Positions 6,677 through 31,052 of a stretch of 35,388 nt of DNA are shown piece by piece. Location: the NCBI GenBank assembly GCA_050185455.1, contig JBFWZL010000003.1:1-35388 (forward strand), given 5' to 3'. The notes under the pieces are model-generated. The model saw only the letters and a program-made list of their open reading frames with translations, had not been told where the DNA came from and searched no databases. The position numbers and the translations under genes were made by a program. Numbering within the stretch: position 1 is the stretch's first letter; the number at the start of each line of letters is the position of its first letter. This stretch comes from Candidatus Binatia bacterium (GTDB lineage: Bacteria > Desulfobacterota > Binatia > Bin18).

Positions 6677-6692
6677 CGGCATGTATTCTGCT
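6677..6692 (+). promoter_or_regulatory. Putative sigma54 -24/-12 promoter (glutaredoxin-CcdA gene)
   Basis: CGGCATGTATTCTGCT: GG-N10-GC, but the -12 box is CTGC rather than TTGC. Confidence 0.45.
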
Positions 6693-6778
6693 GTCTACAA
6701 TAGCTGAGGTGGTGAATTTATACTGGACTCACGTAAGTCAGAGTAGGCTTTTTGCTGAGATATAGTTGAATATTACTG

Positions 6779-8002
6779 TTGACCAGGTTGCTCTCCGTTT
6801 CCATGATGCAGTTTTTTTTCTTCGCGCTTTTGACTACTTGTCTGTTTCTGCCCGCTCGCTCCGCAGCTGACCTTCAACAGGTACAGGGCGAGCTTGAGGT
6901 GTTCACCCGTCCTGGCTGTCCTCATTGTGAAGACGCCAAACTCTTCCTTGAGGAACTGCGCCGCGAACAACCGGAAATCCACATCGTTGTGCATGATATT
7001 TGGCAGGACCCGGCGGCGCGTGCGCGTTTGCAAGAGCTTGCTACGCGCCAAGGAATACTCACGCCGGGCGTTCCAGCTTTTTACGTACAAGGACAACTAA
7101 TCATCGGATATGGCGGCGCGGATATGACCGGAGCATACCTGAGAGCTTTGTTGCTCCAACCGCAAACTCATGCTCTTAGGGCAGAAGAGAAAACCACCAC
7201 CGGCCTCTGCGAGTCGCGGGAGGATTCCTCTTGCGTGCCAACTGAGCGAAGCCCAACGGCTGAGTCCGAGACCGTGGAAATTCCATTTCTCGGTTGGCGC
7301 TTCACGGTACAGCAGCTTGGTCTTCCATTGTTTACTTGCGTTTTAGGAATATTGGATGGGTTCAATCCCTGCTCGATGTGGGTCTTGATTCTCATGCTCT
7401 CGATGTTGGCGGGTCTCAGAGACCGAAAAAAAATGTTGATCATCGCTGGCGTATTCGTTGCCGTGGAAGGGGTAGCCTATTTTGCTTTTATGGCGGCCTG
7501 GCTGAATATTTTTTTGTTTGTTGGTCTGTCTCGGGCTTCGGAAGTTATTCTCGGAGGGGTTGCCTGTATTGCCGGCGCGATCAATTTGAAGGACTTTTGG
7601 GCTTTTGGTCGAGGGATATCCTTGTCCATCCCCAAGGCGGCGAAACCCGGAGTGTACGCAAAACTGAGGCGGATTCTGCAGGCGGAGAGCCTCTCTGCCG
7701 CTGTGTGCGGCACTATCGTGCTTGCGCTACTCGTCCAAATAGTAGAGTTTCTCTGTACGACAGGCTTCCCAGCGTTGTACACGCGGATCTTGACGTTGCG
7801 ACAGTTAGATAGCGGAACCTATTACAGCTATCTCCTCCTGTATAATTTCATGTACATGTTGGACGATCTCTTGGTGTTAACCATTGGAGTTGTGACGCTC
7901 AGTCAGCGTCGTCTACAAGAAAAAGAAGGAAAATGGCTCAAACTCCTGAGCGGCGTGGTGATGATGATTCTCGGTCTTTATTTACTCAGCCCTCCTGCGT
8001 AG
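6779..8002 (+). CDS. Glutaredoxin/NrdH-like (CPHC) domain fused to CcdA/DsbD-like transmembrane electron-transfer domain
   Basis: Signal-like N-terminus, FTRPGCPHC and cis-Pro GVPAF. The multi-TM region carries DGFNPCSMWVL and VEFLCTTGFP cysteine motifs. Start is uncertain (6779 or about 6803). Confidence 0.82.
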   Translation: MTRLLSVSMMQFFFFALLTTCLFLPARSAADLQQVQGELEVFTRPGCPHCEDAKLFLEELRREQPEIHIVVHDIWQDPAARARLQELATRQGILTPGVPAFYVQGQLIIGYGGADMTGAYLRALLLQPQTHALRAEEKTTTGLCESREDSSCVPTERSPTAESETVEIPFLGWRFTVQQLGLPLFTCVLGILDGFNPCSMWVLILMLSMLAGLRDRKKMLIIAGVFVAVEGVAYFAFMAAWLNIFLFVGLSRASEVILGGVACIAGAINLKDFWAFGRGISLSIPKAAKPGVYAKLRRILQAESLSAAVCGTIVLALLVQIVEFLCTTGFPALYTRILTLRQLDSGTYYSYLLLYNFMYMLDDLLVLTIGVVTLSQRRLQEKEGKWLKLLSGVVMMILGLYLLSPPA

Positions 8003-8033
8003 TTTAACTTTCGGTTCTCTTCCGCGATCTAAG

Positions 8034-8068
8034 TGACAATTTTGCCAGTTTTGAGAAAAATTTTCTTA
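8034..8068. promoter_or_regulatory. Candidate enhancer-binding-protein sites (two imperfect palindromes)
   Basis: TGACAATTTTGCCA (8034-8047) and TGAGAAAAATTTTCTTA (8052-8068), about 60-95 bp upstream of a -24 box. Confidence 0.5.
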
Positions 8069-8128
8069 CTATTTCGCAAAAAAAAGAAACACATTCTGTA
8101 TTCCCTCTTGATTGATACTGTCTCATGT

Positions 8129-8144
8129 CGGCACATATTTTGCC
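8129..8144 (+). promoter_or_regulatory. Sigma54 -24/-12 promoter (cytochrome c)
   Basis: CGGCACATATTTTGCC: GG-N10-GC with TTGC. Confidence 0.75.
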
Positions 8145-8178
8145 CTCTAGGGAGTCAACCTACCCCAGGAGGCGCAGA

Positions 8179-8613
8179 ATGCGAGCAAGATCTCGAATAA
8201 AGAGAAGAGGAAAACAACTCATTCAGGTTGGAGTGATCTTTTTGTTCGCGTTTTGCGTACAGGTGCACCCCGGCTTTGCCCAAGAGGATGAAATCGCGGC
8301 TGGAGGAAGGTTCCAATACCAATCGCATTGCGCGGTGTGTCACGGAGTAAAAGGGGTAGGGGATGGCAGGATGGCTGATGATCTATTGGTCAAGCCGTCC
8401 AATCTTACGCAGTTAGCCAAGAAGAATGGCGGATCGTTTCCTTTTTGGAAGGCTTATCGGGTGATCGACGGTCGTGATGAAGTCGAGGCGCACGGCTCGC
8501 GCGCCATGCCTGTATGGGGGGTCTGGTTTCATCGAATGGAGGGAAGCGAGTTGCTTGCAACCGGGCGTATCTTGGAACTGATCTATTATTTGAAATCCAT
8601 CCAAGAAAAGTGA
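8179..8613 (+). CDS. Monoheme class I cytochrome c, periplasmic
   Basis: Signal peptide, heme motif CAVCH, and HGSRAMPVWG with axial Met. AGGAGG RBS before the ATG at 8179. The 8125 start overlaps the promoter. Confidence 0.9.
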   Translation: MRARSRIKRRGKQLIQVGVIFLFAFCVQVHPGFAQEDEIAAGGRFQYQSHCAVCHGVKGVGDGRMADDLLVKPSNLTQLAKKNGGSFPFWKAYRVIDGRDEVEAHGSRAMPVWGVWFHRMEGSELLATGRILELIYYLKSIQEK

Positions 8614-8707: not shown

Positions 8708-9151
8708 CTATGAGGCGGTTTCTTTCCCAACGACTAACACGGGACAAGGCGAATAACGCACGACCCTCTCGGCGACACTACCAAGTAGGGCATGGCGCAC
8801 GCCAGTCCTTCCCTGCGTCCCCATGACAATCAAGTCAATCCGTTCTTCCTCGGCTACTCGACAGATATCGTTAAACGGTTCTCCTATCACAATTCGTATG
8901 TCGATCGCTACACCGTGACTTTGCTGCTTACTCTTCAGGTCGTGTAACTGGGTCTCCGCGGTATCTCGCAGTTTGGTCTCGAACTCTACGAGATCAGCCC
9001 CCGCGAGCATATGTGGATAATTCGGCTGAGGAATGACATGGCAAAGGTACAGATGAGAACGCCACTGTTCCGCCATAGTCACCGCCCAATTCAGCGCCTT
9101 TTCTGAATATTCAGAAAAATCAATCGGAACAAGAATACGACCAATGTCCAT
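8708..9151 (-). CDS. Universal stress protein (UspA family)
   Basis: ILVPIDFSEYSEKAL, DLIVMGTQGRTG...LLGSVAERVVRYSPCPVLVV. AAGGAG RBS before the ATG at 9151. Confidence 0.95.
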   Translation of the reverse strand: MDIGRILVPIDFSEYSEKALNWAVTMAEQWRSHLYLCHVIPQPNYPHMLAGADLVEFETKLRDTAETQLHDLKSKQQSHGVAIDIRIVIGEPFNDICRVAEEERIDLIVMGTQGRTGVRHALLGSVAERVVRYSPCPVLVVGKETAS

Positions 9152-9203
9152 TATCAAACTCCTTCCTTACTTTAATGCATAGCTTTCCAGATTAACCAAT
9201 TTC

Positions 9204-9219
9204 AGCAAGGGGGATGCCA
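9204..9219 (-). promoter_or_regulatory. Sigma54 -24/-12 promoter (usp)
   Basis: Minus strand TGGCATCCCCCTTGCT: GG-N10-GC with TTGC. Confidence 0.8.
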
Positions 9220-9336
9220 GCAACTTTGAGTTTTCCTTGTGGAAATTTTCCTATCTTTGCAAAATCTATTGGCCGTTGTTTCTTGAAGACAAGAATTTTC
9301 AGAGAGATTGCCGCTACATTCCCCAGCTTGTGAGCC

Positions 9337-9352
9337 CGGTATGGGACTTGCT
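9337..9352 (+). promoter_or_regulatory. Sigma54 -24/-12 promoter (pncB operon)
   Basis: CGGTATGGGACTTGCT: GG-N10-GC with TTGC. Confidence 0.72.
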
Positions 9353-9366
9353 CTTATCTCCTGTTC

Positions 9367-10767
9367 ATGAGTTCCCTAACGAGCGTCGCCTTATTTACCG
9401 ATTTGTATGAACTGACAATGGCGGCGAGTTACTTCCAGCATCAGATGTTTGCGCCCGCCACGTTTAGTCTATTCGTGCGCGAACTGCCGCCGCAGCGTGG
9501 ATTTCTGGTCGCTGTGGGTGTGGAAGAGGTGCTACGGACGCTCGAAGATTTCGCCTTCTCCGAAGAGGACATCGCCTTTCTCCGACAAGACGGACGATTT
9601 CACGCCGACTTCCTGGATTACTTGCAGACCTTGCGCTTCTCGGGCGAGGTCCACGCGTTTCCAGAAGGGCGGCTCTGTTTTGCCAACGAACCATTGTTAG
9701 AGATCACTGCTCCGATCATCGAATCCCAGATTATTGAAACCCTCGTGCTCAACTCCGTGCATGTGCAAACGCTCATTGCCAGCAAAGCTGCGCGTTGTTT
9801 CGCCGCCGCGCAAGGACGCATGTTAGTCGACTTTTCTTTACGTCGCACGCATGGAATCGACGCCGGACTCAAGGTGGCGCGCGCGAGTTACGTGGCGGGG
9901 TTTGATGGCACGAGTAACGTTCTCGCCGGAAAACTCTATAAGGTGCCATTTTATGGCACGATGGCGCACTCGTTTGTTGAAAGTTTTGATGATGAAGAGT
10001 CCTCCTTCGCCGCGTACGCCGAAACGTTCCCTGATGATACGGCGCTCTTGATCGATACCTATGACACGATTGCTGGCGCTCGACACGCCGCCCAAGTGGG
10101 ACGACAACTGCAACAACATGGGCATCGTCTGCGTGGGGTGCGCCTGGATAGTGGTGACCTTTTAACGCTGAGTCAGGAGACGCGCGCTATCCTTGATGCC
10201 GCTGGACTGACTTCCGCTCGCATCTACGCAAGTGGCGGGCTCAACGAAGAGAAAGTCGCCCGTTTGGTTGCCGCCGGTGCGCCCATCGATGTCTTTGGCG
10301 TTGGTACGGATATGGGGGTGAGTGGAGACGCGCCGTCCCTCGATATGGCCTACAAATTGGTGGAATACGCGGGAGCGCCTCGGCTCAAACTCAGCACAAA
10401 AAAGATCAGTCTCCTGGGGAAAAAGCAAGTTTTCCGTGTGACGGATGCGGCTGGGCGCTATCAAAGCGACATCATTGCGATGCGCGATGAACGTCCCGAA
10501 GACGTGGCGCCAGCGATTCCCAGAGAACGGATAGTCCCTCTTTTGACGCAAGTCATGGCTAGAGGAAAGCGAGTACAGCCGCAACCTTCACTGCAAGAAA
10601 CTCGGGCGCGGTTTCTTGCCGAATTCGCAAAACTTCCTGAAACGTACAAACAATTACAGCCACCGGAGCGTTACCCGGTTACTCTCAGTCCGGCTCTCGC
10701 CCGATTCCAAGAACAGTCTATTAGGCGGTTGCGCGCGCGTTACAGCGCCGCCACCGCGTCCGCATGA
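9367..10767 (+). CDS. pncB: Nicotinate phosphoribosyltransferase
   Basis: LFTDLYELTM, DFSLRRTH, GTSNVLAG, GTMAHS (phospho-His), LIDTYD, GVRLDSGD, ASGGL, YKLVEY. Confidence 0.96.
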   Translation: MSSLTSVALFTDLYELTMAASYFQHQMFAPATFSLFVRELPPQRGFLVAVGVEEVLRTLEDFAFSEEDIAFLRQDGRFHADFLDYLQTLRFSGEVHAFPEGRLCFANEPLLEITAPIIESQIIETLVLNSVHVQTLIASKAARCFAAAQGRMLVDFSLRRTHGIDAGLKVARASYVAGFDGTSNVLAGKLYKVPFYGTMAHSFVESFDDEESSFAAYAETFPDDTALLIDTYDTIAGARHAAQVGRQLQQHGHRLRGVRLDSGDLLTLSQETRAILDAAGLTSARIYASGGLNEEKVARLVAAGAPIDVFGVGTDMGVSGDAPSLDMAYKLVEYAGAPRLKLSTKKISLLGKKQVFRVTDAAGRYQSDIIAMRDERPEDVAPAIPRERIVPLLTQVMARGKRVQPQPSLQETRARFLAEFAKLPETYKQLQPPERYPVTLSPALARFQEQSIRRLRARYSAATASA

Positions 10768-10789
10768 AAGAAGAGAGAGGAGGAACACA

Positions 10790-11314
10790 ATGTCAACTAA
10801 AACCCAAGGCCGAGGCGGTGTGAAGACTCGACGCAATCTGGCGGAATTCAACGCCACAGATCCTTATCAGCCGCGCCTCGGTCCAGGCGAGGTCGCGGTT
10901 TGCACGGAATGCCACGCCTTGTATCAACGCCGTCATTGGTTCTTTGATCATGACGCCTATGTGCGTGAGACCATGCAGCCCACCACTCGTATGGTGCTCT
11001 GTCCCGCCTGTCAAAAAATTCGCGACCGCTATGCCGAGGGACAAGTGACACTCCGTCCCGGCTCCTTCCTCTCCGCGCACAAAGAAGAGATCATCCACTT
11101 GATTCGCAACGAAGAAGAACGCGCGAAAGGCTTTAATCCGCTGGAACGCATCGTGGAACTCAATGACTCGGACAATGGAATCATTGTAACGACGACAAAT
11201 GAGAAACTTGCTCAGCGAATTGGACGAACGCTGAAAAGCACGCATCAAGGGCAAACGACGTATCGTTGGTCCGATCCCAAATTTCTTTCAGTCGAATGGG
11301 AACGTCCAGATTAG
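10790..11314 (+). CDS. BCAM0308-family protein (two CxxC pairs, putative Zn-binding)
   Basis: DPY...VCTECHALY..RHW...LCPACQKIRD.YAEG.V.L...NPLERI...VTTTNEKLAQRIGR.L. GGAGG RBS before the ATG at 10790. Confidence 0.82.
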   Translation: MSTKTQGRGGVKTRRNLAEFNATDPYQPRLGPGEVAVCTECHALYQRRHWFFDHDAYVRETMQPTTRMVLCPACQKIRDRYAEGQVTLRPGSFLSAHKEEIIHLIRNEEERAKGFNPLERIVELNDSDNGIIVTTTNEKLAQRIGRTLKSTHQGQTTYRWSDPKFLSVEWERPD

Positions 11315-11528: not shown

Positions 11529-11710
11529 TGCCGCGACTCCCACTCATCCTACGAGACAGACGCCGACACTGTAGCAGTGCGGTCGTCGTGTGACGACCAT
11601 TTTTGCAAAAATGAAAAAGATGAGAAAATTTTATTGCACTTCTGAGAACGTTTGCCTCCAGGTTCTTTGAGAACTGGTGAGAAAAAGCTGCGAATCACGC
11701 TCTGACGCCA

Positions 11711-11726
11711 CGGCAAGAGAATTGCG
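11711..11726 (+). promoter_or_regulatory. Sigma54 -24/-12 promoter (CBS gene)
   Basis: CGGCAAGAGAATTGCG: GG-N10-GC with TTGC. TGAGAA(A/C) repeats lie upstream at 11621, 11643, 11668 and 11678. Confidence 0.72.
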
Positions 11727-11768: not shown

Positions 11769-12251
11769 ATGTCACTGCAAAAATTTTGTAAACGGCCTGT
11801 CGTGACGATTTCTCCGGACCAACCAATTGTCGCTGCGTGTCAGTTGCTTCGCGAAAAAAATGTCGGCTGTCTGGTTGCAGTCGAAAACGGCAAACTGAGC
11901 GGCATTCTGACGGATCGTGACATTGCTCTTCAAGTAACTGGTGAAAAGAAAGACCCGCAACAAATCAAGGTACGCGATGTGATGACCGCCAATCCGATGC
12001 GTATCGCCGTAAATAAGACCTTGCACGATCTCACCTCGCTTATGCACACGCATCACGTCCGGCGTATTCCCATTGTCGAGGGTGGAGACACGGTTATCGG
12101 CTTGGTTACACTAGATGATTTACTCATGCTTCTTGGCGAGGAAATGGCGGACATCGGTCAAGGAGTCTCCGGGGCGCTTTTCTACAAACCTTCGCCTACT
12201 GGACAAGAACCCTCGCCGATGCCGATAGAGTGGCTGATGTCGTACCTCTAG
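11769..12251 (+). CDS. CBS-pair domain protein (Hrp1/Rv2626c-like)
   Basis: VVTISPD, NVGCLVAVE.GKL.GILTDRDI, VRDVMT.NP, VRRIPIV...GLVTLDDLL. AAGGAGG RBS. Confidence 0.93.
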   Translation: MSLQKFCKRPVVTISPDQPIVAACQLLREKNVGCLVAVENGKLSGILTDRDIALQVTGEKKDPQQIKVRDVMTANPMRIAVNKTLHDLTSLMHTHHVRRIPIVEGGDTVIGLVTLDDLLMLLGEEMADIGQGVSGALFYKPSPTGQEPSPMPIEWLMSYL

Positions 12252-12283
12252 TGGTTTTTTACAGGCAAGTGAGTAATACGGTT

Positions 12284-12341: not shown

Positions 12342-13211
12342 ATGGAAACGCTGCTTCCAAATGCCGAGATCGCCCGCCGCCTTGAAGAAGTGGCGTGGTT
12401 GCTAGAAGAGCAAGGCGCGAATCCGTATCGGGTGCAGGCTTATCGTCATGGCGCGGATACCTTGCGTTACCTCCGGCGCTCGGTAGCCGACTTGGTGTAT
12501 GAAGCAGGAGTCGAGGGATTATATCGCCTGCCTGGTATCGGGGAGAGTTTAGCCCGATCTATTCGCGAACTCGTGTTGACGGGCAGATTGCCCATACTCG
12601 ATCGACTCCGGGGGGAAGCTGAGCCGGAAAAGTTGCTTGCTTCCGTTCCCGGCATCGGTCCGGTATTGGCGGAACGACTCCATCACGATTTAAGCATTGA
12701 AACTCTGGGAGAACTTGAAGCGGCCGCTCATGACGGACGCCTTGAGACGCTGGCGGGAATTGGCAAGAAGAAGCTTGCGGGCATTATGGACTCCCTGGCG
12801 ACGCGCCTGGGTCGTATACCCAGGTTTCAACACGCGACAACAGCGGAAGAACCTCTCGTCGTGGAACTCTTAGACGTTGACCGCGAGTATCGCGAAAAAG
12901 CCAAGGCTGGCCAGTTACGACGGATTGTGCCACACCGTTTCAATCCCAGTCGTGAGGCGTGGCTACCAGTGTTGCACACCCAGCGTGGCGAGCGGCACTA
13001 TACGGCGCTTTTTTCCAATACGGCGCGGGCGCATAAGCTCGGCAAAATTCACGATTGGGTTGTACTTTATTATGACGGCGGTGCTGGAGAGCGCCAGGCG
13101 ACGATTATTACGAGTCAACGAGAACCGCTTTTCGGGAAGCGGATCGTACGCGGGCGTGAGGACGAGTGCGCTGCACACTATCGAAAACTCCAGATGTCAA
13201 TTCCAGGTTGA
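12342..13211 (+). CDS. Helix-hairpin-helix DNA-binding protein (PolX-like N-terminus plus uncharacterised C-terminal domain)
   Basis: NAEIARRLEEVA.LLE.QGANPYRVQAYR, three HhH motifs (LPGIG, VPGIG, LAGIG), then RFNPSREAWLPVLH...YTALFSNTARAH...DWVVLY. No PolX DxD nucleotidyltransferase motif or PHP domain seen. Confidence 0.85.
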   Translation: METLLPNAEIARRLEEVAWLLEEQGANPYRVQAYRHGADTLRYLRRSVADLVYEAGVEGLYRLPGIGESLARSIRELVLTGRLPILDRLRGEAEPEKLLASVPGIGPVLAERLHHDLSIETLGELEAAAHDGRLETLAGIGKKKLAGIMDSLATRLGRIPRFQHATTAEEPLVVELLDVDREYREKAKAGQLRRIVPHRFNPSREAWLPVLHTQRGERHYTALFSNTARAHKLGKIHDWVVLYYDGGAGERQATIITSQREPLFGKRIVRGREDECAAHYRKLQMSIPG

Positions 13212-13312
13212 GCGCGGCCTTGTTGCATTTTCGCCGCGCTATCCACTGCGCTGCGTCAGTCGCTTTTGCGACACACTTCGCAAACTCTAGTCTTCCAGGT
13301 ATACATGCACGA

Positions 13313-14582: not shown

Positions 14583-14598
14583 CGGTCTGGGAATTGCT
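14583..14598 (+). promoter_or_regulatory. Putative sigma54 -24/-12 promoter (ICMT-like gene)
   Basis: CGGTCTGGGAATTGCT: GG-N10-GC with TTGC. Confidence 0.58.
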
Positions 14599-14720
14599 CT
14601 ACCCTTCTGTTGTTTTTTGCTTTGAAAGATTCTGTATTCCCTATGTCTTCTTTTTCTTCTTCTTCATCTCTGGAACTGCTTGCCGAATCTTCTCTTCTGC
14701 TTGATGACGGAAACAGATTC

Positions 14721-15528: not shown

Positions 15529-15780
15529 CTAGGCTTCCTTGATCCGTCCGCGCAAATACGCAACGCATCCGTTCAGATTCGTCATCTGCGGATAGTCCGC
15601 TTCAGGGATCTCAACTCCCGTGACTTCGTGGATGGCGATTATCCAATTCAGGATGTCCATAGAGTCCAGGTCAAGCTGTTCTCGCAAGTCGACCGCAGGA
15701 TCGAGTTGTTCAGTCTCGGCCTCTGGGGCAATGTTCCCAAGTTCACGAAGAACTAATGTTTTGATCTCTTCGTCCGTCAT
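15529..15780 (-). CDS. Acyl carrier protein (phosphopantetheine-binding)
   Basis: 83 aa, acidic, LDLDSMD attachment motif, GVEIPEADY. ATGA overlap with the pdhC stop. Confidence 0.9.
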   Translation of the reverse strand: MTDEEIKTLVLRELGNIAPEAETEQLDPAVDLREQLDLDSMDILNWIIAIHEVTGVEIPEADYPQMTNLNGCVAYLRGRIKEA

Positions 15781-19055: not shown

Positions 19056-20818
<1,763 letters not shown>

Positions 20819-20855
20819 GAGATGCACCTCGATGTTGTGCGTTCCTCTCACCTAG

Positions 20856-21014: not shown

Positions 21015-21079
21015 GGAAAAAAGAGAAAATTTATTTTTATGACAGATTTTCTAGCTTTGTTTCGCGTAAGGAGGAAGCG

Positions 21080-22860: not shown

Positions 22861-22876
22861 AGCAAGCAGCCTGCCG
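22861..22876 (-). promoter_or_regulatory. Sigma54 -24/-12 promoter (malic enzyme)
   Basis: Minus strand CGGCAGGCTGCTTGCT: GG-N10-GC with TTGC. Confidence 0.75.
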
Positions 22877-23043
22877 CTGTCCATTATGGTTCTGTACCTG
22901 GGGCTTAGCTTCGTGGTGACAATAATTCTATAGTTATTCCAATTGCTGCTAATAGGTTCTCCGTTCTTTAGTATTTATGGGAATCTTCTCCACAGTATTT
23001 TTCTTACGCTTTGCGCAGAGGGATTCTCCAAGATTTCTTCTGT

Positions 23044-23059
23044 TGGTACAGCGTTTGCT
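23044..23059 (+). promoter_or_regulatory. Sigma54 -24/-12 promoter (APH-AAA gene)
   Basis: TGGTACAGCGTTTGCT: GG-N10-GC with TTGC. Confidence 0.78.
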
Positions 23060-23161: not shown

Positions 23162-24775
23162 ATGAACAATCTCGATCCTCATAACAGCGCGGTCTTTACT
23201 GACCTATTGACGGCCTTATGCCAGCCGGCCTGCTACCCCCATCATCCCGACCATGTAGAGCTGGTGCAAACGCATATCTCCGCAGTCTTTCTAGCTGGCG
23301 ATGAAGTGTACAAGCTGAAAAAGCCGGTTCGTTTCTCTTTTCTTGACTATTCAACCTTGCAACTCCGGCATCATTACTGTGAAGAAGAAGTCCGTCTGAA
23401 TCGACGGCTCGCGCCCACGGTCTATTTAGGCGTTGCTCCCGTGCTGCGCATTGGCAACGAGTATCGCGTTCGTGAAGCGGTCAACATGCGGGACGCCGTC
23501 GTGGTGGACTATCTCGTGAGAATGCGGCGTTTGCCTCCGGAACGAACCTTGGCGGCGCTTCTTACCGCTGAGCGCATCGGTAAAGAGGATATTCAGGTGC
23601 TAGCGAAACGGCTCGTACATTTTCATCAATCCGCGGCGACCAAGGATGCGGCGATGTACGGCGCTCCTGAGGTTGTGTGGCAAGCGCTGGCGGACAACTT
23701 TAGTGAGACGGCGTCCTTTATCGGCGATACTATTAGTCAGAAACAATACTCCTGCATTCAGGACTTCAGTCGACGGTTCTTCGAGGACTATCAGGACCTT
23801 CTCACGCGGCGTATCCTGCATGATCGTATCCGCGAGGGACATGGCGACCTGCGCTGTGATCATGTGTATTTTCTCGATCAAGGCATCGAGATGATTGACT
23901 GCATTGAGTTCAGTCCGCGTCTGCGCACTTGCGATGTCGCGTCGGAACTCGCGTTCCTGGCGATGGATCTTGAACTCCGCGGCGCGCCTACGGTCGCGGC
24001 TGACCTGGTTCACGAATATGTTGTGCAAGCCGACGACGCGGAACTTTTACCGTTGCTGCCATTTTACCAATGTTACCGCGCGTATGTGCGTGGGAAGGTG
24101 GAGAGCCTGAAGAGCCGTGAGCCGGAAATTTCTCCCACGGAACAAGACCGTGCGTGCTGGCAAGCGCGACGCGCCTTTCGCCTCGCGTATCGGTATGCGC
24201 GTGGGCCGCTGGCTCCGTCATTGCTCGTGGTCTGTGGTCGAGTCGGTACGGGTAAGTCCACGGTGGCTCAGCTCTTGAGCGCTCATACCGGCTTTGCCGT
24301 ACACAACTCGGATGTGGTGCGCAAACGTCTAGCCGGGCTTCCTCCGACAGCTCATGCAAATGATGAATATCGCAGCGGCATCTATAGTGAAGATTTTTCG
24401 AGAAAAACGTATGCCGCATTACAGACTCAGGCTGAGGAAACACTGCGGAATGGTCGAGGCGTCATCATCGACGCGACGTGTAAACAGCGAGAGGATCGTC
24501 ACAGTTTTCTGGCTCTAGGCGAGCGATTGGGAATTCCGGTGTTATTCGTTGAATGTCGCGCCTCGCTTACCGAAGTCGAGCGACGTTTACGCGAACGGGA
24601 AAAACGCGGCGATTCGGCCTCCGACGCCACCGTAGACATCGCGCGACAGCAAGAAAGTGATTTTCCTTCTTTTGACGATCTTCCCGCCTCACGTCACTGG
24701 GCGATAGACACCGAAAGTGACCTTGACGAGGCCTTGGTCCCGGTTGAAGAAGCGCTTGTTGTAGTCAATCATTGA
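23162..24775 (+). CDS. Aminoglycoside phosphotransferase-like + AAA_33 P-loop kinase fusion (Rv2004c-like)
   Basis: QTHISAVFL...YKLKKPV, EVRLNRRLAP.VY, REGHGDLR, IDCIEF, D...ELAFLAMDL, Walker A GRVGTGKST, SDVVRK.LAG. Confidence 0.92.
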   Translation: MNNLDPHNSAVFTDLLTALCQPACYPHHPDHVELVQTHISAVFLAGDEVYKLKKPVRFSFLDYSTLQLRHHYCEEEVRLNRRLAPTVYLGVAPVLRIGNEYRVREAVNMRDAVVVDYLVRMRRLPPERTLAALLTAERIGKEDIQVLAKRLVHFHQSAATKDAAMYGAPEVVWQALADNFSETASFIGDTISQKQYSCIQDFSRRFFEDYQDLLTRRILHDRIREGHGDLRCDHVYFLDQGIEMIDCIEFSPRLRTCDVASELAFLAMDLELRGAPTVAADLVHEYVVQADDAELLPLLPFYQCYRAYVRGKVESLKSREPEISPTEQDRACWQARRAFRLAYRYARGPLAPSLLVVCGRVGTGKSTVAQLLSAHTGFAVHNSDVVRKRLAGLPPTAHANDEYRSGIYSEDFSRKTYAALQTQAEETLRNGRGVIIDATCKQREDRHSFLALGERLGIPVLFVECRASLTEVERRLREREKRGDSASDATVDIARQQESDFPSFDDLPASRHWAIDTESDLDEALVPVEEALVVVNH

Positions 24776-24943
24776 AGAACGAGAAACAGACGCTACCGGA
24801 GCAGGCGTCGGAGAACGTCGCCAACTGAGCAGCGTTAAGAGCAAAACAAGCGCCACCATCAGGAAAAAGAAGAGCCAGAGGAGGGAAAAGCGCAGGCGTA
24901 ACCAGCGGAGACGACGGGGCGAGGGGGGCGAAGCATTTGCCAT
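24689..24943 (-). CDS. Possible small membrane-anchored protein or N-terminal gene remnant
   Basis: ATG 26 nt after the ybaK stop. Basic N-terminus, one strong hydrophobic helix and a Pro-rich linker. The last 87 nt overlap the convergent APH-AAA gene. Confidence 0.35.
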   Translation of the reverse strand: MANASPPSPRRLRWLRLRFSLLWLFFFLMVALVLLLTLLSWRRSPTPAPVASVSRSSMIDYNKRFFNRDQGLVKVTFGVYRPVT

Positions 24944-24969
24944 AGGTTCGTTTTCTCTAGTGTTCCGGC

Positions 24970-25440
24970 CTAGAGATGTCGGGCAAACTTTGCGACACGA
25001 GGATGCACGAGACGCTGATAGTCATCATAACGCATGTGGATAGTTTGCCAGTGAGAGCCGCTGTTGAAAGCAATTTCTTCATCTTCCGCCAGTGACACGT
25101 CCATAACGGTATCGAGATTAAATAAATTACCGAACGGCGGTTCGGCGCCGACTTCGCAACCAGGGAAAAGAGTGCGAAACTTCTCCTCTTGTTCAAGTTC
25201 TACGTGTTCGCCTAACACCTGGCGCAGTCGAGCAAAATCCACCTGATGAGAAGCAGGAAGCACCAGCATGACTGGCGCGCCGTTGTCCTTTTTCACGAGA
25301 ACAACTTTGGCCATTTGTTTCCCCGGTATATGTTGCAACGCGGCTACTTCTTGCGCCGTATAGGCGAGTGAATGCGTGAGCACTTGATATTTGATCTTCT
25401 GCTCGTCGAGATACTCTTGGAGTTTTCGTAATATCGGCAC
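24970..25440 (-). CDS. YbaK/ProX-family aminoacyl-tRNA deacylase-like protein
   Basis: H..AYTAQEVA...MAKVVLVK, LVLPASH.VD, FPGCEVGA.PPFG, IAFNSGSH. GTG start with GAGG RBS. Confidence 0.92.
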   Translation of the reverse strand: MPILRKLQEYLDEQKIKYQVLTHSLAYTAQEVAALQHIPGKQMAKVVLVKKDNGAPVMLVLPASHQVDFARLRQVLGEHVELEQEEKFRTLFPGCEVGAEPPFGNLFNLDTVMDVSLAEDEEIAFNSGSHWQTIHMRYDDYQRLVHPRVAKFARHL

Positions 25441-25628: not shown

Positions 25629-25644
25629 AGCAAGCTGTTTGCCG
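25629..25644 (-). promoter_or_regulatory. Sigma54 -24/-12 promoter (ybaK-like gene)
   Basis: Minus strand CGGCAAACAGCTTGCT: GG-N10-GC with TTGC. Confidence 0.75.
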
Positions 25645-25759
25645 AGCCAAGAGGCTGCATGAATCGTCGATTCTTGTCTGTTTCTTCCCATCTCTGATAA
25701 TTTTTTAGCCTCCTTTTCTTATTCACGAGAAAAGGGAGGCGCTCTTTCCTTCTCGCTTC

Positions 25760-25775
25760 TGGTATGGAGCTTGCT
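25760..25775 (+). promoter_or_regulatory. Sigma54 -24/-12 promoter (P-type ATPase operon)
   Basis: TGGTATGGAGCTTGCT: GG-N10-GC with TTGC. Confidence 0.8.
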
Positions 25776-25824: not shown

Positions 25825-28671
25825 ATGACGTCCGCCTCGATTGAGACCTTGCCAATCTCCTCGGTGTATGGCGCTGTCGCTACCCGCCCTCAAGGATTGA
25901 CGCAAGCGGAAGCGGACGAACGCTTACGGCGGTACGGGTGCAATACTCTTCGCGAGGTTGCTTCTACCTCTCTCGCACGAAAGTTCCTGGCAAACTGTAC
26001 GCATCTGATGGCGCTCTTGTTGTGGATTGGCGGAGGGCTGGGATTTCTTGCGCGCATGCCTGAGTTGGGCGCCGCCATCTGGGCAGTCAATTTGATTAAT
26101 GGCGTCTTCAGTTTTTGGCAAGAGTACAAGGCTGAAAAAGCCCTGGAGGCCCTGCGTCGGTTGTTGCCGATGTACAGCCGAGTGCTGCGCGATGGTGTTG
26201 AACAACGTCTCCTTGCCAAAGAGTTGACGCCGGGTGATGTCATTCTCCTGGCCGAGGGAGAGCACATTTCCGCCGACGCCCGCCTGGTTGAGGAAACCGA
26301 GCTGCGTGTGGACCAATCGACTCTTACCGGAGAATCTCATCCCGTCCGCAAAACGGCGGAAGCCGTGCTGCGTCAGAACCTCACGCGCGCCGAGATCCCT
26401 AACCTGGTTTTTGCCGGGACTAGTGTTGTGGCGGGCGCCGGCAAGGCCGTGGTGTTTGCCAGCGCTATGGAGACGGAGTTCGGTAAGATCGCCCACTTGA
26501 CTCAAGAGGTGAGCGAGACCCTCAGCCCCTTACAAAAAGAAATGATCCGGGTCACGCAGATTGTGACGATTATTGCTGTGAGTGTGGGCGTTCTGCTCTT
26601 TGCGTTGACAGTCGCTCTGGGCGGCATGAATGTAACGGAGGGGTTTATTTTCGCCATTGGGATGATCGTTGCTTTCGTACCGGAGGGTCTTTTGCCTACA
26701 GTTTCACTCGCCTTGGCGATGGGGACGCAACGCATGGCGCGCCGTCACGCACTCATCAAGCGCTTATCCGCGGTGGAAACTCTCGGTTGCACCACGGTGA
26801 TTTGCACGGATAAGACCGGAACCCTGACACAGAACGAGATGACTGTCCGAGAGGTGTGGGTAGCCGATCAACGCTTTCCGGTCTCCGGAGTTGGCTATGC
26901 CCCTGAAGGATGCTTGCTGCAATCCGGGCAGCCTGTTCTTCCTTCTCGCGCTAGCGATATAGGTCAGGTGTTACTTGCCGCCGCACTCTGCAACGATGCG
27001 CGCCTACTACCCCCGAGCAGTGAGTCCCCGCAGTGGACTGTGTTAGGAGACCCGACGGAAGCCGCGTTGCTGGTGGTGGCGCGAAAAGGCGGGCTCGATC
27101 TCCAGGAAGTGTCACGGCAAGTTCCGCGTCTCCGAGAGTTGCCCTTTGACTCTCGGCGAAAACGAATGAGCACGATCCATGACGCCCACGTCACGTTGTG
27201 TCTGGAGCAAGAAAGCAGAACATCCGACGATTCCCCACACGTCTCACAAGATCCACAACAGGCAACCCGGGTCACGCAACACGATGCTTTTGTCGTATAT
27301 GTGAAAGGAGCCCCGAAAGAAGTGCTCTCGCTTTGCACGCAGGTGCAGAGAGATGGGCGAAACTGTCCCTTCTCCGAGACTCAGCGCGCCCAGGTTATCG
27401 CGGTCAACGACGATTATGCGCGCACGGGGTTGCGAGTGCTGGCTATTGCCCAACGACTGTTTAAAGAAAGTCCCACTGCGTGGACTCCGGAAACGATCGA
27501 GCAAGACCTCACTTTCCTGGGTTTAGTCGCGATGATGGACCCACCGCGCGACGAGGTGGCCGAAGCGGTGGAGAAATGCCGTCGCGCCGGAATTCGCATC
27601 ATCATGATTACTGGAGATTATGGATTGACGGCGGAAAGCATTGCGCGCCGCGTGGGGATTATACATGGACCGCAGCCGCGGTTGTTGACCGGCGCGGAGC
27701 TGGCAACGATGGAAGACGCAGCCTTGAAAGAGGTATTGCAAGGCGAGGTCATCGTGGCGCGCGCTGCTCCTGACCATAAACTGCGCATTGTAAAAGCGCT
27801 GCAAGATATGGGTCATGTTGTCGCCGTTACTGGCGACGGCGCAAATGACGCCCCCGCGCTCAAGAAGGCGGACATCGGAGTGGCCATGGGTATAGGGGGG
27901 ACGGATGTCGCCAAAGAAGCAGCGGATATGATCCTCACCGACGACAACTTTGCTTCCATCGTGAACGCCGTGGAGGAAGGGCGAGCCGTCTACGCCAACA
28001 TTAAGAAGTTTATTACGTATATCTTTACGAGTAACACGCCGGAAGCCGTTCCTTTCATTTTGTTTGCATTCAGCGGCGGACGAATCCCTTTAGCGCTCAA
28101 TGTCATGCAGGTGCTCTCTATCGATCTAGGGACTGACCTGGTTCCCGCTCTGGCGCTGGGCGCGGAAGCCCCTGAACCTGGAGTTATGAACAAACCGCCG
28201 CGAAAGCTGAACGAACATGTCATTACTCGCGGTCTGTTGCTTCGCGCGTATCCGTGGTTAGGCGCGTTACAGAGCGTTGCGGCCATCGCCGCCTTCTATT
28301 TTCCCTACTGGATGAACGGGTATTGGGGACAGTGGAGTGATTTGCCGGCGCAAGGGCATTTGCATCAGACCGCAACGACCATGACTCTTGCGTCCGTTGT
28401 GGTTACCCAAATAGGGAATCTCTTTGCTCAGCGGACGGAGTCGCTTTCTATCTTGCAGATTGGTTTTTTCAGTAACCGCCTGGTGTGGGGAGGAATCGCC
28501 ACGGAGTTGGCGCTCATTGTGTTGTTGGTCTACGTTCCTCCTTTGCAAGCCATATTCGGCACCGCGGCGCTGCCGCTCCACAATTGGTGGTTCCTCCTGG
28601 CGTGGACTCCCTTACTCTTCCTGGCTGATGAACTACGAAAAGCGCTGGTGCGTGGGAGCACGATCCCATGA
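25825..28671 (+). CDS. Cation-transporting P-type ATPase, type II (Na+/K+-ATPase-like ion-site motifs)
   Basis: LTGES, FVPEGL, CTDKTGTLT, KGAP, DPPR, MITGD, TGDGANDAPALKKADIG, FTSNTPEAVPF, IDLGTD. GGAGGAG RBS before the ATG at 25825. Confidence 0.95.
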   Translation: MTSASIETLPISSVYGAVATRPQGLTQAEADERLRRYGCNTLREVASTSLARKFLANCTHLMALLLWIGGGLGFLARMPELGAAIWAVNLINGVFSFWQEYKAEKALEALRRLLPMYSRVLRDGVEQRLLAKELTPGDVILLAEGEHISADARLVEETELRVDQSTLTGESHPVRKTAEAVLRQNLTRAEIPNLVFAGTSVVAGAGKAVVFASAMETEFGKIAHLTQEVSETLSPLQKEMIRVTQIVTIIAVSVGVLLFALTVALGGMNVTEGFIFAIGMIVAFVPEGLLPTVSLALAMGTQRMARRHALIKRLSAVETLGCTTVICTDKTGTLTQNEMTVREVWVADQRFPVSGVGYAPEGCLLQSGQPVLPSRASDIGQVLLAAALCNDARLLPPSSESPQWTVLGDPTEAALLVVARKGGLDLQEVSRQVPRLRELPFDSRRKRMSTIHDAHVTLCLEQESRTSDDSPHVSQDPQQATRVTQHDAFVVYVKGAPKEVLSLCTQVQRDGRNCPFSETQRAQVIAVNDDYARTGLRVLAIAQRLFKESPTAWTPETIEQDLTFLGLVAMMDPPRDEVAEAVEKCRRAGIRIIMITGDYGLTAESIARRVGIIHGPQPRLLTGAELATMEDAALKEVLQGEVIVARAAPDHKLRIVKALQDMGHVVAVTGDGANDAPALKKADIGVAMGIGGTDVAKEAADMILTDDNFASIVNAVEEGRAVYANIKKFITYIFTSNTPEAVPFILFAFSGGRIPLALNVMQVLSIDLGTDLVPALALGAEAPEPGVMNKPPRKLNEHVITRGLLLRAYPWLGALQSVAAIAAFYFPYWMNGYWGQWSDLPAQGHLHQTATTMTLASVVVTQIGNLFAQRTESLSILQIGFFSNRLVWGGIATELALIVLLVYVPPLQAIFGTAALPLHNWWFLLAWTPLLFLADELRKALVRGSTIP

Positions 28672-29321
28672 AAATCCTTATTATTGGCTGCGGTCGTGTC
28701 GGCTCCGGTCTGGCGCTGAATTTGAGCCGACACGACCATCTAGTGACGGTCATCGATCACGTCCCGACCGCGTTTGCACGTCTGGGCGGAACTTTCGCCG
28801 GGCAGGTCGTGCTTGGCGCTGCTTTCGACCGTGAAGCATTACTACAAGCCGGGATAGAGCGAGCCGACGGGCTGGCGGCGGTAACGGGGAGTGACGAGGT
28901 GAATTTCGTGATTGCCCGTGCAGCCAAACGGATGTTCCGCGTTCCTCGGGTAGTGGCGCGGCTGTACGATCCACACAAAGCTGACATTTATCGCCGACTT
29001 GGTTTGCAAACTATTAATCCCATTACCTGGGGCATTCATCGCATCGCCGAACTGCTCAGTTTCTCTCATCTTGACGCCATCGTCAGTTTGGGAAGTGGTG
29101 AAATTGACATTATTGAGACTGAACTACCTCCCTTGCTGGTAGGGCGTACGGTGAATGAACTGACGCTTGTCGGAGAAATTCAGGTGGCTGCCATCAGTCG
29201 CGGAGGCAGAACTTTTCTTCCTACGCTGGGGACGGTATTTCAGGAAGGAGATCTGGTGCATCTTGTGGTGTTAGCCGCTTCTGTGGCGAGACTCAAAAAA
29301 CTGTTAGGAGACCACCGATGA
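28668..29321 (+). CDS. trkA: TrkA-family K+ uptake regulator (RCK-N + RCK-C)
   Basis: IIGCGRVG, L.QAGIERAD, VTGSDEVN, VVARLYDP, C-terminal RCK-C (FLPTLGTVFQEGD). ATGA overlap with the ATPase. Confidence 0.9.
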   Translation: MKILIIGCGRVGSGLALNLSRHDHLVTVIDHVPTAFARLGGTFAGQVVLGAAFDREALLQAGIERADGLAAVTGSDEVNFVIARAAKRMFRVPRVVARLYDPHKADIYRRLGLQTINPITWGIHRIAELLSFSHLDAIVSLGSGEIDIIETELPPLLVGRTVNELTLVGEIQVAAISRGGRTFLPTLGTVFQEGDLVHLVVLAASVARLKKLLGDHR

Positions 29322-29752
29322 CCAGCAATGTCCTCATTGTCGGAGGCGGTGAGGTGGGAACGTATCTCGCCCGCCTGCTTGTGGCGAACAAGCAACAAGT
29401 GAAAATCCTTGAAGTGCGACCGGAGGAACTGCCGCGATTGCGGCGTGATGTGCCGGCGGATATCGTCACGATCGGCGATGGCGCTGACCCTGCCGTCCTT
29501 GAGGCTGCGGACGTCCGTCACGTTCAGGTAGTGGCGGCTGTCACCGGAACGGATGCGACCAATCTGGTCGTTACCAGTCTGGCGCGGTTTGAGTTTCAGG
29601 TGCCCAGGACGATTGCGCGAGTACACACTCCGAAACATGCGTGGCTGTTCACTCCCGAACTAGGGGTGGACATGATGATCAATCAAGCGGATCTCATGGC
29701 GCATTTGATCGCTGAGGAGATGGTCTTGGGGAACCAGAGGAAAGATCTTTGA
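29318..29752 (+). CDS. TrkA-family protein, RCK-N only (probably C-terminally truncated)
   Basis: IVGGGEVG, GDGADPAVLEAA, VTGTDATNLV, RTIARV..P. 144 aa with no RCK-C domain. Confidence 0.82.
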   Translation: MTSNVLIVGGGEVGTYLARLLVANKQQVKILEVRPEELPRLRRDVPADIVTIGDGADPAVLEAADVRHVQVVAAVTGTDATNLVVTSLARFEFQVPRTIARVHTPKHAWLFTPELGVDMMINQADLMAHLIAEEMVLGNQRKDL

Positions 29753-29786
29753 AAAAGCGTTGGATCGTCATGATGGGAAGGCGTTG

Positions 29787-31052
29787 ATGCTTACGCCTCT
29801 TGCCGCTCTGGAGCGGCTCTTGGTCGCAGTTCTCATTGGGGCGTTGATCGGTCTTGATCGTGAACGAGCGGAGGCGCGGAAATCCGCGCAAATCTTTGCC
29901 GGCGTCCGCACGTTTCCTCTTATTGCTCTAGCCGGCGCCGTTCCCATGCTTGTGTTTGACATTACCGGACCTTCGCTTCTTATCACGAGCTTTCTCACGG
30001 TTGTGGCAGTGACGATTATTTCCTACGTGCGCACCTCGGCAAGTGGCAAGGTGGGCGCGACGACGGAAATCGCGGCATTGGTGACTTTCTTGCTCGGCGT
30101 TCTAGCCGGCGCCGGACAACTCGTGATCGCGGGCGCCACGGGAATCGGCGTCGCGGTACTTCTGGTCGCCAAACCTCGCCTCGAAGCGTTCTCGCGGGCG
30201 TTGACTAGTGAGGAACTCGCCGCCACGCTCGAACTGGCGGTGCTGTCCGGCATCATTTTGCCGCTTTTACCGAATCAAGGGTACGGACCCTGGAAAGTCC
30301 TCAATCCTTATGACATCTGGCTTGTGGTCGTCTTAGTGAGTGGGCTCTCGTTTGCCGGGTTTGTGGCTGTTCGGTTGTTAGGCACGCAGAAAGGTCTCAT
30401 GATGACCGGAGTTATCGGGGCGCTCGTTTCTAGCACGGCCGTGACGGTTGCGATGGCGGAGCGCTCACGCACGGACCGCCACCTTGCTGCGCAAGCAGCG
30501 GCGGGGGCAATTTTGGCCTCAACGATCATGGGAGTCCGGGTAATTATACTGGGCTCCTTGATCGATGTATCCATCCTTCCTCGCTTACTTCCCGTGATCG
30601 TCTCCATGGTGCTCGTGGGGATGGTGGCCTCCTGGATTCTTATTCGCAAAGCTCGGATTTTATCCACGAATGCCTCCGAACCAAATCTTTCCAACCCCTT
30701 TCGCTTAACGGAGGCGCTTTTCTTTGCCGGTGTGTACGTGTTTGTTCTGCTCGTTGCTGAGGCTGGTCAAGAATACCTTGGCGCACGCGGCATGTATGTA
30801 GCCGCCGCGCTTTCTTCACTTGCTGATGTTGATGCGGTCACCATTGCTTTTACGCATGTGGGAGGTCGTTCTGGAGAATGGCAAGCGCCAGCTGCCGCGG
30901 TGACGATTGCCGTGGTCACCAACACCTTGGTTAAACTAGGAATTGCCGTGTTTGCCGGCGCCGGCAAATTTCGTTGGCATGTTGGTGGAGCGCTGGCCGT
31001 AATGGCCGTGGTAGCTGCGCTTGTCGGAGTTGTGATCTTTACCAAGTTTTGA
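29787..31052 (+). CDS. MgtC/SapB family + DUF4010 integral membrane protein
   Basis: LIGLDRER...FAGVRTFPLI, G.TTEIA, LPLLPN.GYGPW..LNPY.IW, G.LVSSTA.T, LADVDA.T, TNTLVK. Confidence 0.9.
   Translation: MLTPLAALERLLVAVLIGALIGLDRERAEARKSAQIFAGVRTFPLIALAGAVPMLVFDITGPSLLITSFLTVVAVTIISYVRTSASGKVGATTEIAALVTFLLGVLAGAGQLVIAGATGIGVAVLLVAKPRLEAFSRALTSEELAATLELAVLSGIILPLLPNQGYGPWKVLNPYDIWLVVVLVSGLSFAGFVAVRLLGTQKGLMMTGVIGALVSSTAVTVAMAERSRTDRHLAAQAAAGAILASTIMGVRVIILGSLIDVSILPRLLPVIVSMVLVGMVASWILIRKARILSTNASEPNLSNPFRLTEALFFAGVYVFVLLVAEAGQEYLGARGMYVAAALSSLADVDAVTIAFTHVGGRSGEWQAPAAAVTIAVVTNTLVKLGIAVFAGAGKFRWHVGGALAVMAVVAALVGVVIFTKF

Follow-up and report, generated by a model that had tools for sequence, protein, structure and literature searches.

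What controls the ~24 kb island (6.7-31 kb) of stress, dormancy and central metabolism genes on contig JBFWZL010000003.1 of a Candidatus Binatia bacterium? The window, meaning the whole stretch of DNA that was analysed, is the complete contig (C3) of 35,388 bp from a genome (G000) of 6.05 Mb, 650 contigs and 54% GC. Genes of the island were named via Pfam and NCBIfam. Luciferase-like monooxygenases, an amidohydrolase, LigB and a REC-GGDEF protein are encoded on either side of it. The initial annotation placed twelve -24/-12 promoters of the sigma-54 type in the island and proposed that they form a physically clustered regulon under one bacterial enhancer-binding protein (bEBP) acting in trans. 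Our analysis points to a sigma-54 regulon that resembles low-oxygen and dormancy regulons, and that would be controlled through paired DNA dyads by a bEBP of the type encoded on contig C365, with input from a FixL-type kinase. We give this reading a probability of about 0.72. Below, C numbers denote contigs of G000, while G002-G033 and similar numbers denote related genomes.

The twelve GG-N10-GC boxes are all present at the annotated positions and on the annotated strands, including one box on each strand of four divergent spacers, and every box lies upstream of a gene and is directed at it. Eleven of them begin with YGGYA and ten carry TTGC. The sigma-54 consensus context is YTGGCAC-N5-TTGCW-like, with GG and GC 10 nt apart. 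Enrichment over shuffled DNA depends on how sharply the motif is drawn. The bare GG-N10-GC pattern is uninformative (396 matches in the window vs 385 +/- 18 in shuffles), whereas YGGY-N7-TTGC occurs 22 times vs 7.4 in shuffles, with 0 of 100 shuffles reaching 22, and YGGYA-N6-TTGC occurs 12 times vs 1.25 (~10-fold; largest shuffle 4). Nine of these 12 matches are annotated boxes and three are intragenic (16412, 19689, 21238). This last form has 312 matches genome-wide, at 0.052/kb compared with 0.339/kb in the window (6.6-fold). The numbers of intergenic and promoter-like matches in the genome are 101 and 50 for the N6 spacing, 29 and 12 for N5, and 34 and 4 for N7.

To avoid circularity, a sigma-54 position weight matrix (PWM) was built from 42 promoter-like sites, all of them outside the window. 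At a threshold of at least 12 bits, the genome has 95 promoter-like matches. Nine of these are in the window, where 0.56 are expected (binomial p 6e-9), while the runner-up contig holds three; the density of the island is far above that of the rest of the genome. The twelve boxes score 8.7-18.9 bits. The annotation had seen no box before the flanking genes, and there is no intergenic PWM match of at least 10 bits at 1-6600 or 31100-35388. It had also found the window free of activator genes, and the 30 PF00158 matches of the genome all lie on other contigs. The genome has one rpoN gene (contig C4, E 7.4e-62). The enrichment is far above chance expectation, and the island is very probably sigma-54 dependent. 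Conservation upstream of orthologues is mixed: a box is kept before the AAA_33 kinase-like gene (aph) in four of five same-genus genomes and before acs in G002, whereas an alignment with four relatives showed no conserved box before the PEMT/ICMT-like gene.

A candidate activator was found by comparing the AAA+ domains of the 26 strong bEBPs among the PF00158 matches with the regions around AAA_33 kinase-like orthologues in 11 relatives. In G007, G018 and G020, the kinase-like gene has next to it a gene whose product is 78-84% identical to the bEBP encoded at C365:2842-4218. This bEBP is comprised of REC (PF00072, 2.2e-30), Sigma54_activat (PF00158, 1.6e-71) and HTH_8 (PF02954, 1.8e-11) domains, contains a Walker A motif, and has the loop GSFTGA, one substitution away from GAFTGA, the loop by which such activators contact sigma-54. 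Its closest solved structure is Aquifex NtrC1 (1.6e-108), and it scores below the NCBIfam equivalog cut-offs of AtoC (473.4 vs 714), NtrC (408.9 vs 558.6) and ZraR (397.8 vs 760). Across 41 genomes, its orthologues (58-87% identical) are cleanly separated from paralogues (at most 48%). The orthologue lies 0.03-0.8 kb from an AAA_33 kinase-like orthologue or fragment in G020, G007, G017, G024 and G021, and 6-9 kb from one in G018 and G033. Within the window's genus, separate contigs carry the two genes, and therefore the regulator would act in trans there. The bEBP gene of G000 is followed by CBS-USP (universal stress protein) and tandem-USP-Hsp20 units, each behind a sigma-54 box.

The enhancer was defined outside the window, from the promoter next to this bEBP gene in relatives. 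A sigma-54 box lies 94-273 nt past the bEBP stop codon in 11 of 28 orthologue loci, and alignment of these regions gave two conserved dyads. In nine of the eleven loci, which represent five genera, the dyad starts are at -87 and -55 relative to the box, and both dyads fit TTCnC-N6-GnGAA. A symmetrised dyad PWM was made from these 18 sites, none of which is in the window. The element is a 16-bp dyad, TTCnCA-N4-TGnGAA, that occurs twice, 31-32 bp apart. Of the eight promoter regions in the island, six have such pairs, 45-110 nt upstream, which serve ten of the twelve promoters. Each of the four divergent spacers has one central pair. The proximal dyads of the island lie at -45, at -56 to -58 and at -77 to -79.

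The same geometry recurs across the genome. With both dyads scoring at least 7.5 bits, G000 has 29 pairs at a spacing of 31-32, of which 22 are intergenic and five lie in the window, plus one weaker window pair; six control spacings gave 4-8 pairs each, with 0-1 intergenic. The presence of five of the 22 intergenic pairs in the window has a binomial p of 1.7e-7, and 16 of the 22 have a correctly oriented sigma-54 match 35-130 nt off. Among 4234 sigma-54 matches of at least 9 bits, 11 have dyads at -88/-57 (+/- 2) vs 0-5 for shifted-offset controls. Four of these 11 are window promoters and one is the promoter of the C365 bEBP gene itself, which is preceded by dyads at C365:2693 and 2723. The offsets of the proximal dyads concentrate around -45, -56, -66, -77 and about -100. 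In G000 and relatives together their periodicity is 10-11.5 bp (Rayleigh p ~1e-7, training promoters removed, values not all independent), and it is not significant at 7, 8 or 15. Similarly, ~354 kb from 11 relatives contain 20 dyad pairs (two are training sites), 16 of them with a phased sigma-54 match. A strict pattern, TTC-N10-GAA-N15/16-TTC-N10-GAA, was compared with its reverse as control. It gave 79 vs 8 matches, summed over 19 family genomes with a bEBP orthologue or closely similar copy that were hand-picked from the orthologue search, and 1 vs 3 in four family genomes without a bEBP match, three of which belong to one genus.

These observations suggest that one shared bEBP drives ten of the twelve promoters, which we regard as quite likely, and the C365 protein would probably be that bEBP. 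The proposal of a single activator in trans holds for the ten promoters with shared dyads and does not extend to the boxes at 6677 and 14583. Physical clustering is borne out in part. The window is the largest block, with 5-6 of about 22-24 dyad pairs, of a dispersed regulon that extends beyond the island.

Other motifs were tried on the eight promoter regions. Exact 7-mer enrichment gave weak signals only. The non-palindromic motifs ATTTTCTYAY and a GCAAA...AAAAG tract, found by expectation maximization, were modestly above mononucleotide-shuffle nulls. A palindromic search of the same kind, trained on the island, gave GAAAA-N-TTTTC with a log-likelihood of 36 vs at most 19 in real intergenic nulls. 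This motif was dropped for the 16-bp dyads; outside the island it scored best at the promoters of flagellar (FliL/FliO), epimerase and cytidylyltransferase genes. At C13:24560-25898 (L104), FliL and FliO are divergent and have sigma-54 boxes of 18.8 and 14.9 bits without dyad pairs, and presumably belong to a separate flagellar bEBP circuit.

What might activate the regulator? The bEBP cluster of G020 encodes a PAS-HisKA-HATPase kinase together with a qNor gene, CBS genes and USPs. The PAS domain of this kinase matches the FixL haem-domain structure 1DP6 (1.3e-31) and DosP, and that of the G000 orthologue (C164:3719-4984) matches the FixL haem domain 1D06 (6e-26). The similarity covers the whole FixL haem domain and suggests that the PAS is of the FixL haem-binding type. 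Against the NCBIfam FixL equivalog the kinase scores 224.7 vs a cut-off of 850. Of the 19 genomes with a kinase match, ten have the kinase gene no more than 7.3 kb from the bEBP orthologue. In G004 a single contig carries both genes at a distance of 31 kb, and the kinase gene adjoins the AAA_33 kinase-like gene in G025. This neighbourhood suggests that kinase and bEBP form a pair. Because a FixL-type haem-PAS kinase is the likely input, oxygen limitation is a likely signal, and we put it at even odds. FNR-type boxes (TTGAT-N4-ATCAA, at most two mismatches) number 18 in the window vs 13.8 expected, and the promoter regions of the island have none. A C332 kinase with a PAS domain and a sigma-54 box of its own was rejected as a candidate; it is only 25% identical to the G020 cluster kinase. 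The NO (nitric oxide) reductase of the G020 USP/CBS/bEBP cluster (L070:11630-13936) is of the quinol type, with a cytochrome c-like domain in NorB, which hints that NO detoxification is part of the programme in that organism.

The proposed mechanism is as follows. The sigma-54 holoenzyme would sit in closed complexes on the -24/-12 boxes. The C365 regulator, an NtrC-family protein encoded in trans, would be phosphorylated, with the FixL-type haem-PAS histidine kinase as the likely donor of the signal. Its dimers would bind the two 16-bp dyads 31-32 bp apart and oligomerise there, and the oligomer would open promoters 45 to about 110 bp off on the same helix face. One central dyad pair per divergent spacer would fire both promoters, and the activator would drive its own gene too. 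The predicted output is a maintenance programme. Its window part would comprise USP, the CBS-pair protein, NAD salvage (pncB), cytochrome c, acetate activation with a 2-oxoacid dehydrogenase, malic enzyme, a GDH-like enzyme, an AhpD-like protein, and the P-type ATPase with TrkA and MgtC. Hsp20, an HPF-like protein, further USP and CBS proteins and a POR-like operon would be added from elsewhere in the genome.

How well do other explanations fare? The genes might be transcribed from ordinary sigma-70 promoters, with the boxes as chance GG-N10-GC matches. The bare pattern is indeed not enriched, and sigma-70-like matches number 17 vs 10.8 +/- 3.9 in shuffles. The enrichment of the sharper motifs, their specific spacing, their clustering and the fixed geometry of the boxes to an independently defined enhancer make this scarcely credible. 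Alternatively, sigma-54 could act in the island through several bEBPs, and the AT-rich dyads could be a generic element, for instance a stretch of bent DNA or a site for a nucleoid protein. The genome does have about 26 strong bEBP matches, two boxes are without dyads, and the AT-rich GAAAA-N-TTTTC motif also scored before flagellar and polysaccharide genes. However, a generic element would not be expected to give 22 intergenic pairs at 31-32 bp vs 0-1 at six control spacings. The dyads are also position-specific, are kept next to one bEBP in five genera, and track the presence of the C365-type bEBP across genomes, and we consider this explanation improbable. It is similarly unlikely that another protein (a different bEBP, a repressor or a co-regulator) binds the dyads and that the C365 bEBP is merely a member of the regulon. 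Such a binder would fit an assignment made from neighbourhood and self-association, and it would fit G010, where strict pairs occur without a detected close orthologue. Against it, the dyads precede the bEBP gene itself (-88/-57) and, in nine loci of five genera, the adjacent operon, and paired dyads ~30 bp apart in helical register upstream of a -24/-12 promoter are the classic NtrC-type layout, as described in a study of Myxococcus (PMC11841059).

The nature of the signal is less certain. Haem-PAS domains can also sense NO, CO and redox state. A regulon as described here that answers to energy or redox state, NO or general starvation is a real possibility, if short of even odds. USP, CBS, HPF-like and Hsp20 proteins fit any growth-arrest response, the G020 cluster contains a qNor-type NO reductase gene, and the G000 kinase gene has another regulator as its neighbour. 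Oxygen is favoured by the match of the kinase PAS to the haem domains of the oxygen sensors FixL and DosP and by the conserved bEBP neighbour. Additionally, three reports describe low-oxygen induction of closely similar gene sets in Mycobacterium, Burkholderia and Myxococcus (PMC3177182, PMC3721108, PMC11841059).

Several observations weigh against the proposed regulon. The box at 6677 has no dyad of at least 5 bits within 220 nt upstream, and an inverted repeat (TGCCGA-CCTT-TCGGCA, 6666-6681) overlaps its -24 part; this box may belong to a hairpin or an operator and not to a promoter. The box at 14583 is likewise without dyads of at least 5 bits, and an alignment with four relatives showed no conserved box before the PEMT orthologues, whose upstream regions do not align. 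Both boxes may be chance matches or under another activator. In G002, the acs box is retained and the dyads are displaced by a truncated ahpD remnant (L054:8310-8435). The link between dyads and bEBP rests on association and autoregulation. Some of the offsets used for the periodicity come from shared enhancers and some may belong to false sigma-54 matches, and the relatives are kin, so cross-genome counts overstate independence. G010 has eight strict dyad pairs, yet no bEBP more than 44% identical to the query, while in G007 the bEBP is present and the strict pattern is not. The G000 kinase gene is off the bEBP contig, beside genes for a NarL-type regulator, a stand-alone receiver and hydrogenase, and the kinase may signal to the adjoining regulator or receiver instead. 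The sole RNA evidence is one 255-nt metatranscriptome contig identical to 12008-12262. The other pieces in the metatranscriptome run that holds a 0.05 share of sampled words are short, 90-99% alike and on acs, E1 and mae, and are probably from other organisms. These contigs show neither transcript starts nor induction.

G002 deserves a further remark. Only the 3' end of the ahpD-like gene is left there, directly upstream of the acs box. This suggests that a deletion uncoupled acs from the enhancer. The mae/aph dyad pair is present in the corresponding spacer of G002, G004 and G005.

The closest precedent is NmpR of Myxococcus xanthus. NmpR is an autoregulated NtrC-like protein that acts at sigma-54 promoters through two GCGCA-N5-TGCGC dyads, mostly 14-15 nt apart. 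A CBS-domain gene heads the operon of the regulator, targets include USP and P-type ATPase genes, and the system is hypoxia-induced with haem kinase input (PMC11841059). The island shares with this NmpRSTU system the NtrC-type regulator, two dyads, sigma-54, autoregulation and the CBS, USP and P-type ATPase genes. The system described here would work like NmpR but differs from it in the site and probably in the type of sensor. Its site is TTCnCA-N4-TGnGAA and not GCGCA-N5-TGCGC. The kinase gene that is conserved near the bEBP gene here encodes a PAS kinase of the FixL type, in contrast to the protoglobin kinase NmpU with a phosphorelay; a protoglobin search of the genome gave a single PF11563 match, on C8, which is borderline (24.1 bits) and contains an internal stop. 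There are about 22 enhancer pairs here vs 7 NmpR promoters. Unlike NmpR, six pairs lie within 24 kb, four of them in shared divergent spacers, and operons of central metabolism are included.

DosR is a NarL-type regulator that acts at sigma-70-type promoters, whereas the promoters here are of the -24/-12 type with the enhancer of an AAA+ bEBP; Dev boxes were not searched for. The two-box promoters described for Mycobacterium tuberculosis DevR/DosR include those of Rv2626c, ctpF and the Rv0574c-Rv0573c and Rv2005c-Rv2004c operons (PMC3177182). The likeness to the island lies in the gene families (USP, CBS as in Rv2626c, the cation ATPase ctpF, the pncB2 operon and alpha-crystallin) and in the promoter layout, with at least two tandem boxes per promoter, boxes common to divergent genes and helical phasing (PMC3177182). 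In the Burkholderia cenocepacia lxa locus, ~50 genes have one Anr/FNR-like motif (TGA-N6-TCA) at 17 intergenic points (PMC3721108). The island resembles it in having clustered genes with one motif, USPs, a cation ATPase and a BCAM0308-family protein (PMC3721108), and differs from it in the FNR-type boxes, which are not enriched in the window and absent from island promoters. The island belongs to neither the DosR nor the lxa regulatory family. Compared with FixL-FixJ of rhizobia, the kinase PAS matches the FixL haem-domain structures, and the proposed partner is an NtrC-type bEBP in place of a FixJ/NarL-type regulator. Beyond NmpR, a literature search gave no FixL-type kinase with an NtrC-type sigma-54 activator and no RpoN regulon with USP and hibernation genes. 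We tentatively propose that a FixL-type sensor here signals to an NtrC-type regulator and a sigma-54 regulon of more than 20 operons, and not to FixJ/FixK, which would place a DosR/lxa-like toolkit on a third, unrelated switch.

If this is true, the module known from DosR and lxa (USP, CBS, Hsp20, HPF-like, pncB, cation ATPase) is joined here by acetate, pyruvate and malate metabolism. It would be under a switch without basal leak, and bidirectional in-register enhancers would let one activator assembly fire two promoters. The comparison suggests that a USP/CBS/ATPase/pncB survival module is conserved across phyla with its regulator swapped: NarL-type in mycobacteria, FNR-type in Burkholderia, and sigma-54 with an AAA+ activator here. 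The four shared divergent spacers would be a compact natural system in which one bEBP oligomer serves two sigma-54 promoters. Box, dyad pair, 31-32 bp spacing and ~10.5-bp register together amount to a concrete regulatory code, open to testing, by which an uncultivated lineage would run a dormancy-like programme, and the dyad pattern can be used to annotate the regulon in related metagenome-assembled genomes.

The positions of all features are collected in Table 1. Genes of the regulon outside the window were named by BLAST to proteins of the window or C365 or by N-terminal reading, except for the C10 CBS-pair and C638 tandem USP genes (Pfam). A second, smaller cluster at C10:16365-21425 (partly L112) has the strongest dyad pair of the genome (16.3 and 16.3 bits). 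At C167:1-6891 (L115 = 1-2500), a shared dyad pair of 15.5 and 15.5 bits lies at -57 and -56 from two boxes. By its N-terminal sequence only, the C167 operon reads like subunits of pyruvate:ferredoxin oxidoreductase followed by a NorB-like protein.

Table 1. Predicted sigma-54 boxes, enhancer pairs and genes of the island (window positions), and further predicted regulon units on other contigs. Dyad offsets are distances from the GG of the box.
Feature	Position	Strand	Details
Box before glutaredoxin-like gene	6677-6692	+	PWM 14.1; unconfirmed
Glutaredoxin-like gene	6779-8002	+	Pfam/NCBIfam
Enhancer pair, cytochrome c promoter	8042-8057 and 8073-8088		14.2 and 10.9 bits; -88/-57
Cytochrome c promoter	8129-8144	+	PWM 16.4
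Cytochrome c gene	ORF 8125-8613, likely ATG 8179	+	Pfam Cytochrome_CBB3 24.5 bits, under cut-off 27
usp (universal stress protein)	8708-9157	-	Pfam Usp 2.6e-39
usp promoter	9204-9219	-	PWM 15.0; dyads -77/-45 (pair common with pncB)
usp/pncB shared enhancer pair	9248-9295 (dyads 9248, 9280)		11.8 and 9.8 bits; 32 bp apart
pncB promoter (then BCAM0308-family gene)	9337-9352	+	PWM 18.9; dyads -90/-58
pncB (nicotinate phosphoribosyltransferase)	9367-10767	+	NCBIfam NF006696 590.8 bits
BCAM0308-family gene	within ORF 10616-11314	+	NF040826 141.6 bits vs cut-off 100
CBS enhancer pair, weaker	11602-11648		11.9 and 6.6 bits; -110/-79
CBS-pair gene promoter	11711-11726	+	PWM 11.2
CBS-pair gene	11769-12251	+	Pfam
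HhH/PolX-N gene	12342-13211	+	Pfam; after CBS-pair gene
GDH-like gene (Glu/Leu dehydrogenase-like)	13166-14476	+	Pfam; after HhH/PolX-N gene
Box before PEMT/ICMT-like gene	14583-14598	+	PWM 13.0; unconfirmed
PEMT/ICMT-like methyltransferase gene	14610-15488	+	Pfam/NCBIfam
acs - E1 alpha - E1 beta - E2 operon	15777-20851	-	Pfam and NCBIfam
acs operon promoter	20856-20871	-	PWM 12.9; dyads -87/-56; box kept in G002
acs/ahpD shared enhancer pair	20911-20957		13.2 and 11.5 bits; canonical distance to both
ahpD promoter	20999-21014	+	PWM only 8.7 (GTGC at -12); dyads -89/-58
ahpD (AhpD/CMD-family gene)	ORF 20951-21433, likely ATG 21080	+	Pfam/NCBIfam
mae (malic enzyme gene)	21473-22816	-	Pfam/NCBIfam
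mae promoter	22861-22876	-	PWM 18.1; dyads -108/-77
mae/aph shared enhancer pair	22937-22983		7.7 and 8.8 bits; symmetric about both promoters
AAA_33 kinase-like gene promoter	23044-23059	+	PWM 15.3; dyads -108/-77
aph (AAA_33 kinase-like gene, 537 aa)	23162-24775	+	Pfam/NCBIfam
ybaK (YbaK-like deacylase gene)	24970-25440	-	Pfam/NCBIfam
ybaK promoter	25629-25644	-	PWM 15.0; dyads -88/-57
ybaK/ATPase shared enhancer pair	25685-25731		10.4 and 12.6 bits
P-type ATPase operon promoter	25760-25775	+	PWM 18.4; dyads -76/-45
P-type IIA ATPase gene	to 28671, likely ATG 25825	+	Pfam; first of operon
TrkA gene	28668-29321	+	Pfam; same operon as P-type ATPase
TrkA-N gene	29318-29752	+	Pfam; same operon as P-type ATPase
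MgtC/DUF4010 gene	29760-31052	+	Pfam; same operon as P-type ATPase
CBS - HPF-like - Glu/Leu-dehydrogenase-like unit diverging from PCMT-like - tandem USP - CBS - cytochrome c unit	C10		
CBS gene diverging from POR-like operon with NorB-like gene	C167		
Second P-type ATPase and PckA-like gene	C225		behind dyad pair
USPs	C336, C521, C638		behind dyad pairs
Cytochromes c	C494		behind dyad pair
Hsp20-like gene	C287		behind dyad pair

Several open reading frame (ORF) starts in the program-made list cross boxes, and the ATGs at 8179, 14643, 21080 and 25825 are likelier starts. The acs operon encodes an acetate-CoA ligase and a 2-oxoacid dehydrogenase complex, and its neighbouring ORFs share 4 to 8 nt. 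A search of five same-genus genomes gave no orthologue of the glutaredoxin-like gene. The CBS protein of the window matches PDB structures of Rv2626c at 2.8e-11, alongside other stand-alone CBS proteins. The AAA_33 kinase-like gene, a putative homologue of Rv2004c, encodes a protein with no relative among solved structures in a structure-database search. The name of the NF040826 model begins with 'lxa_'; the family is named for a gene of the Burkholderia low-oxygen-activated locus and its function is unassigned. In Pfam, the ORF at 10616-11314 has merely a weak NMD3-like match.

GC content is flat in the window (0.52-0.57), a composition without sign of foreign origin, and Rfam gave no match there. 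The pncB ATG at 9367 sits 14 nt past the -12 element (window 9337-9369), and a sigma-54 transcript of pncB would have a leader of a few nt without a Shine-Dalgarno sequence. Two more sigma-54-like boxes on the - strand (24836-24859 and 24923-24946; 12.4 and 12.5 bits) lie in the convergent AAA_33 kinase-like/ybaK spacer and point antisense into the kinase-like gene; they could be chance matches or an antisense promoter. A related-locus search of genome contigs gave one distant match, 33% identical, in Candidatus Kuenenia sp.

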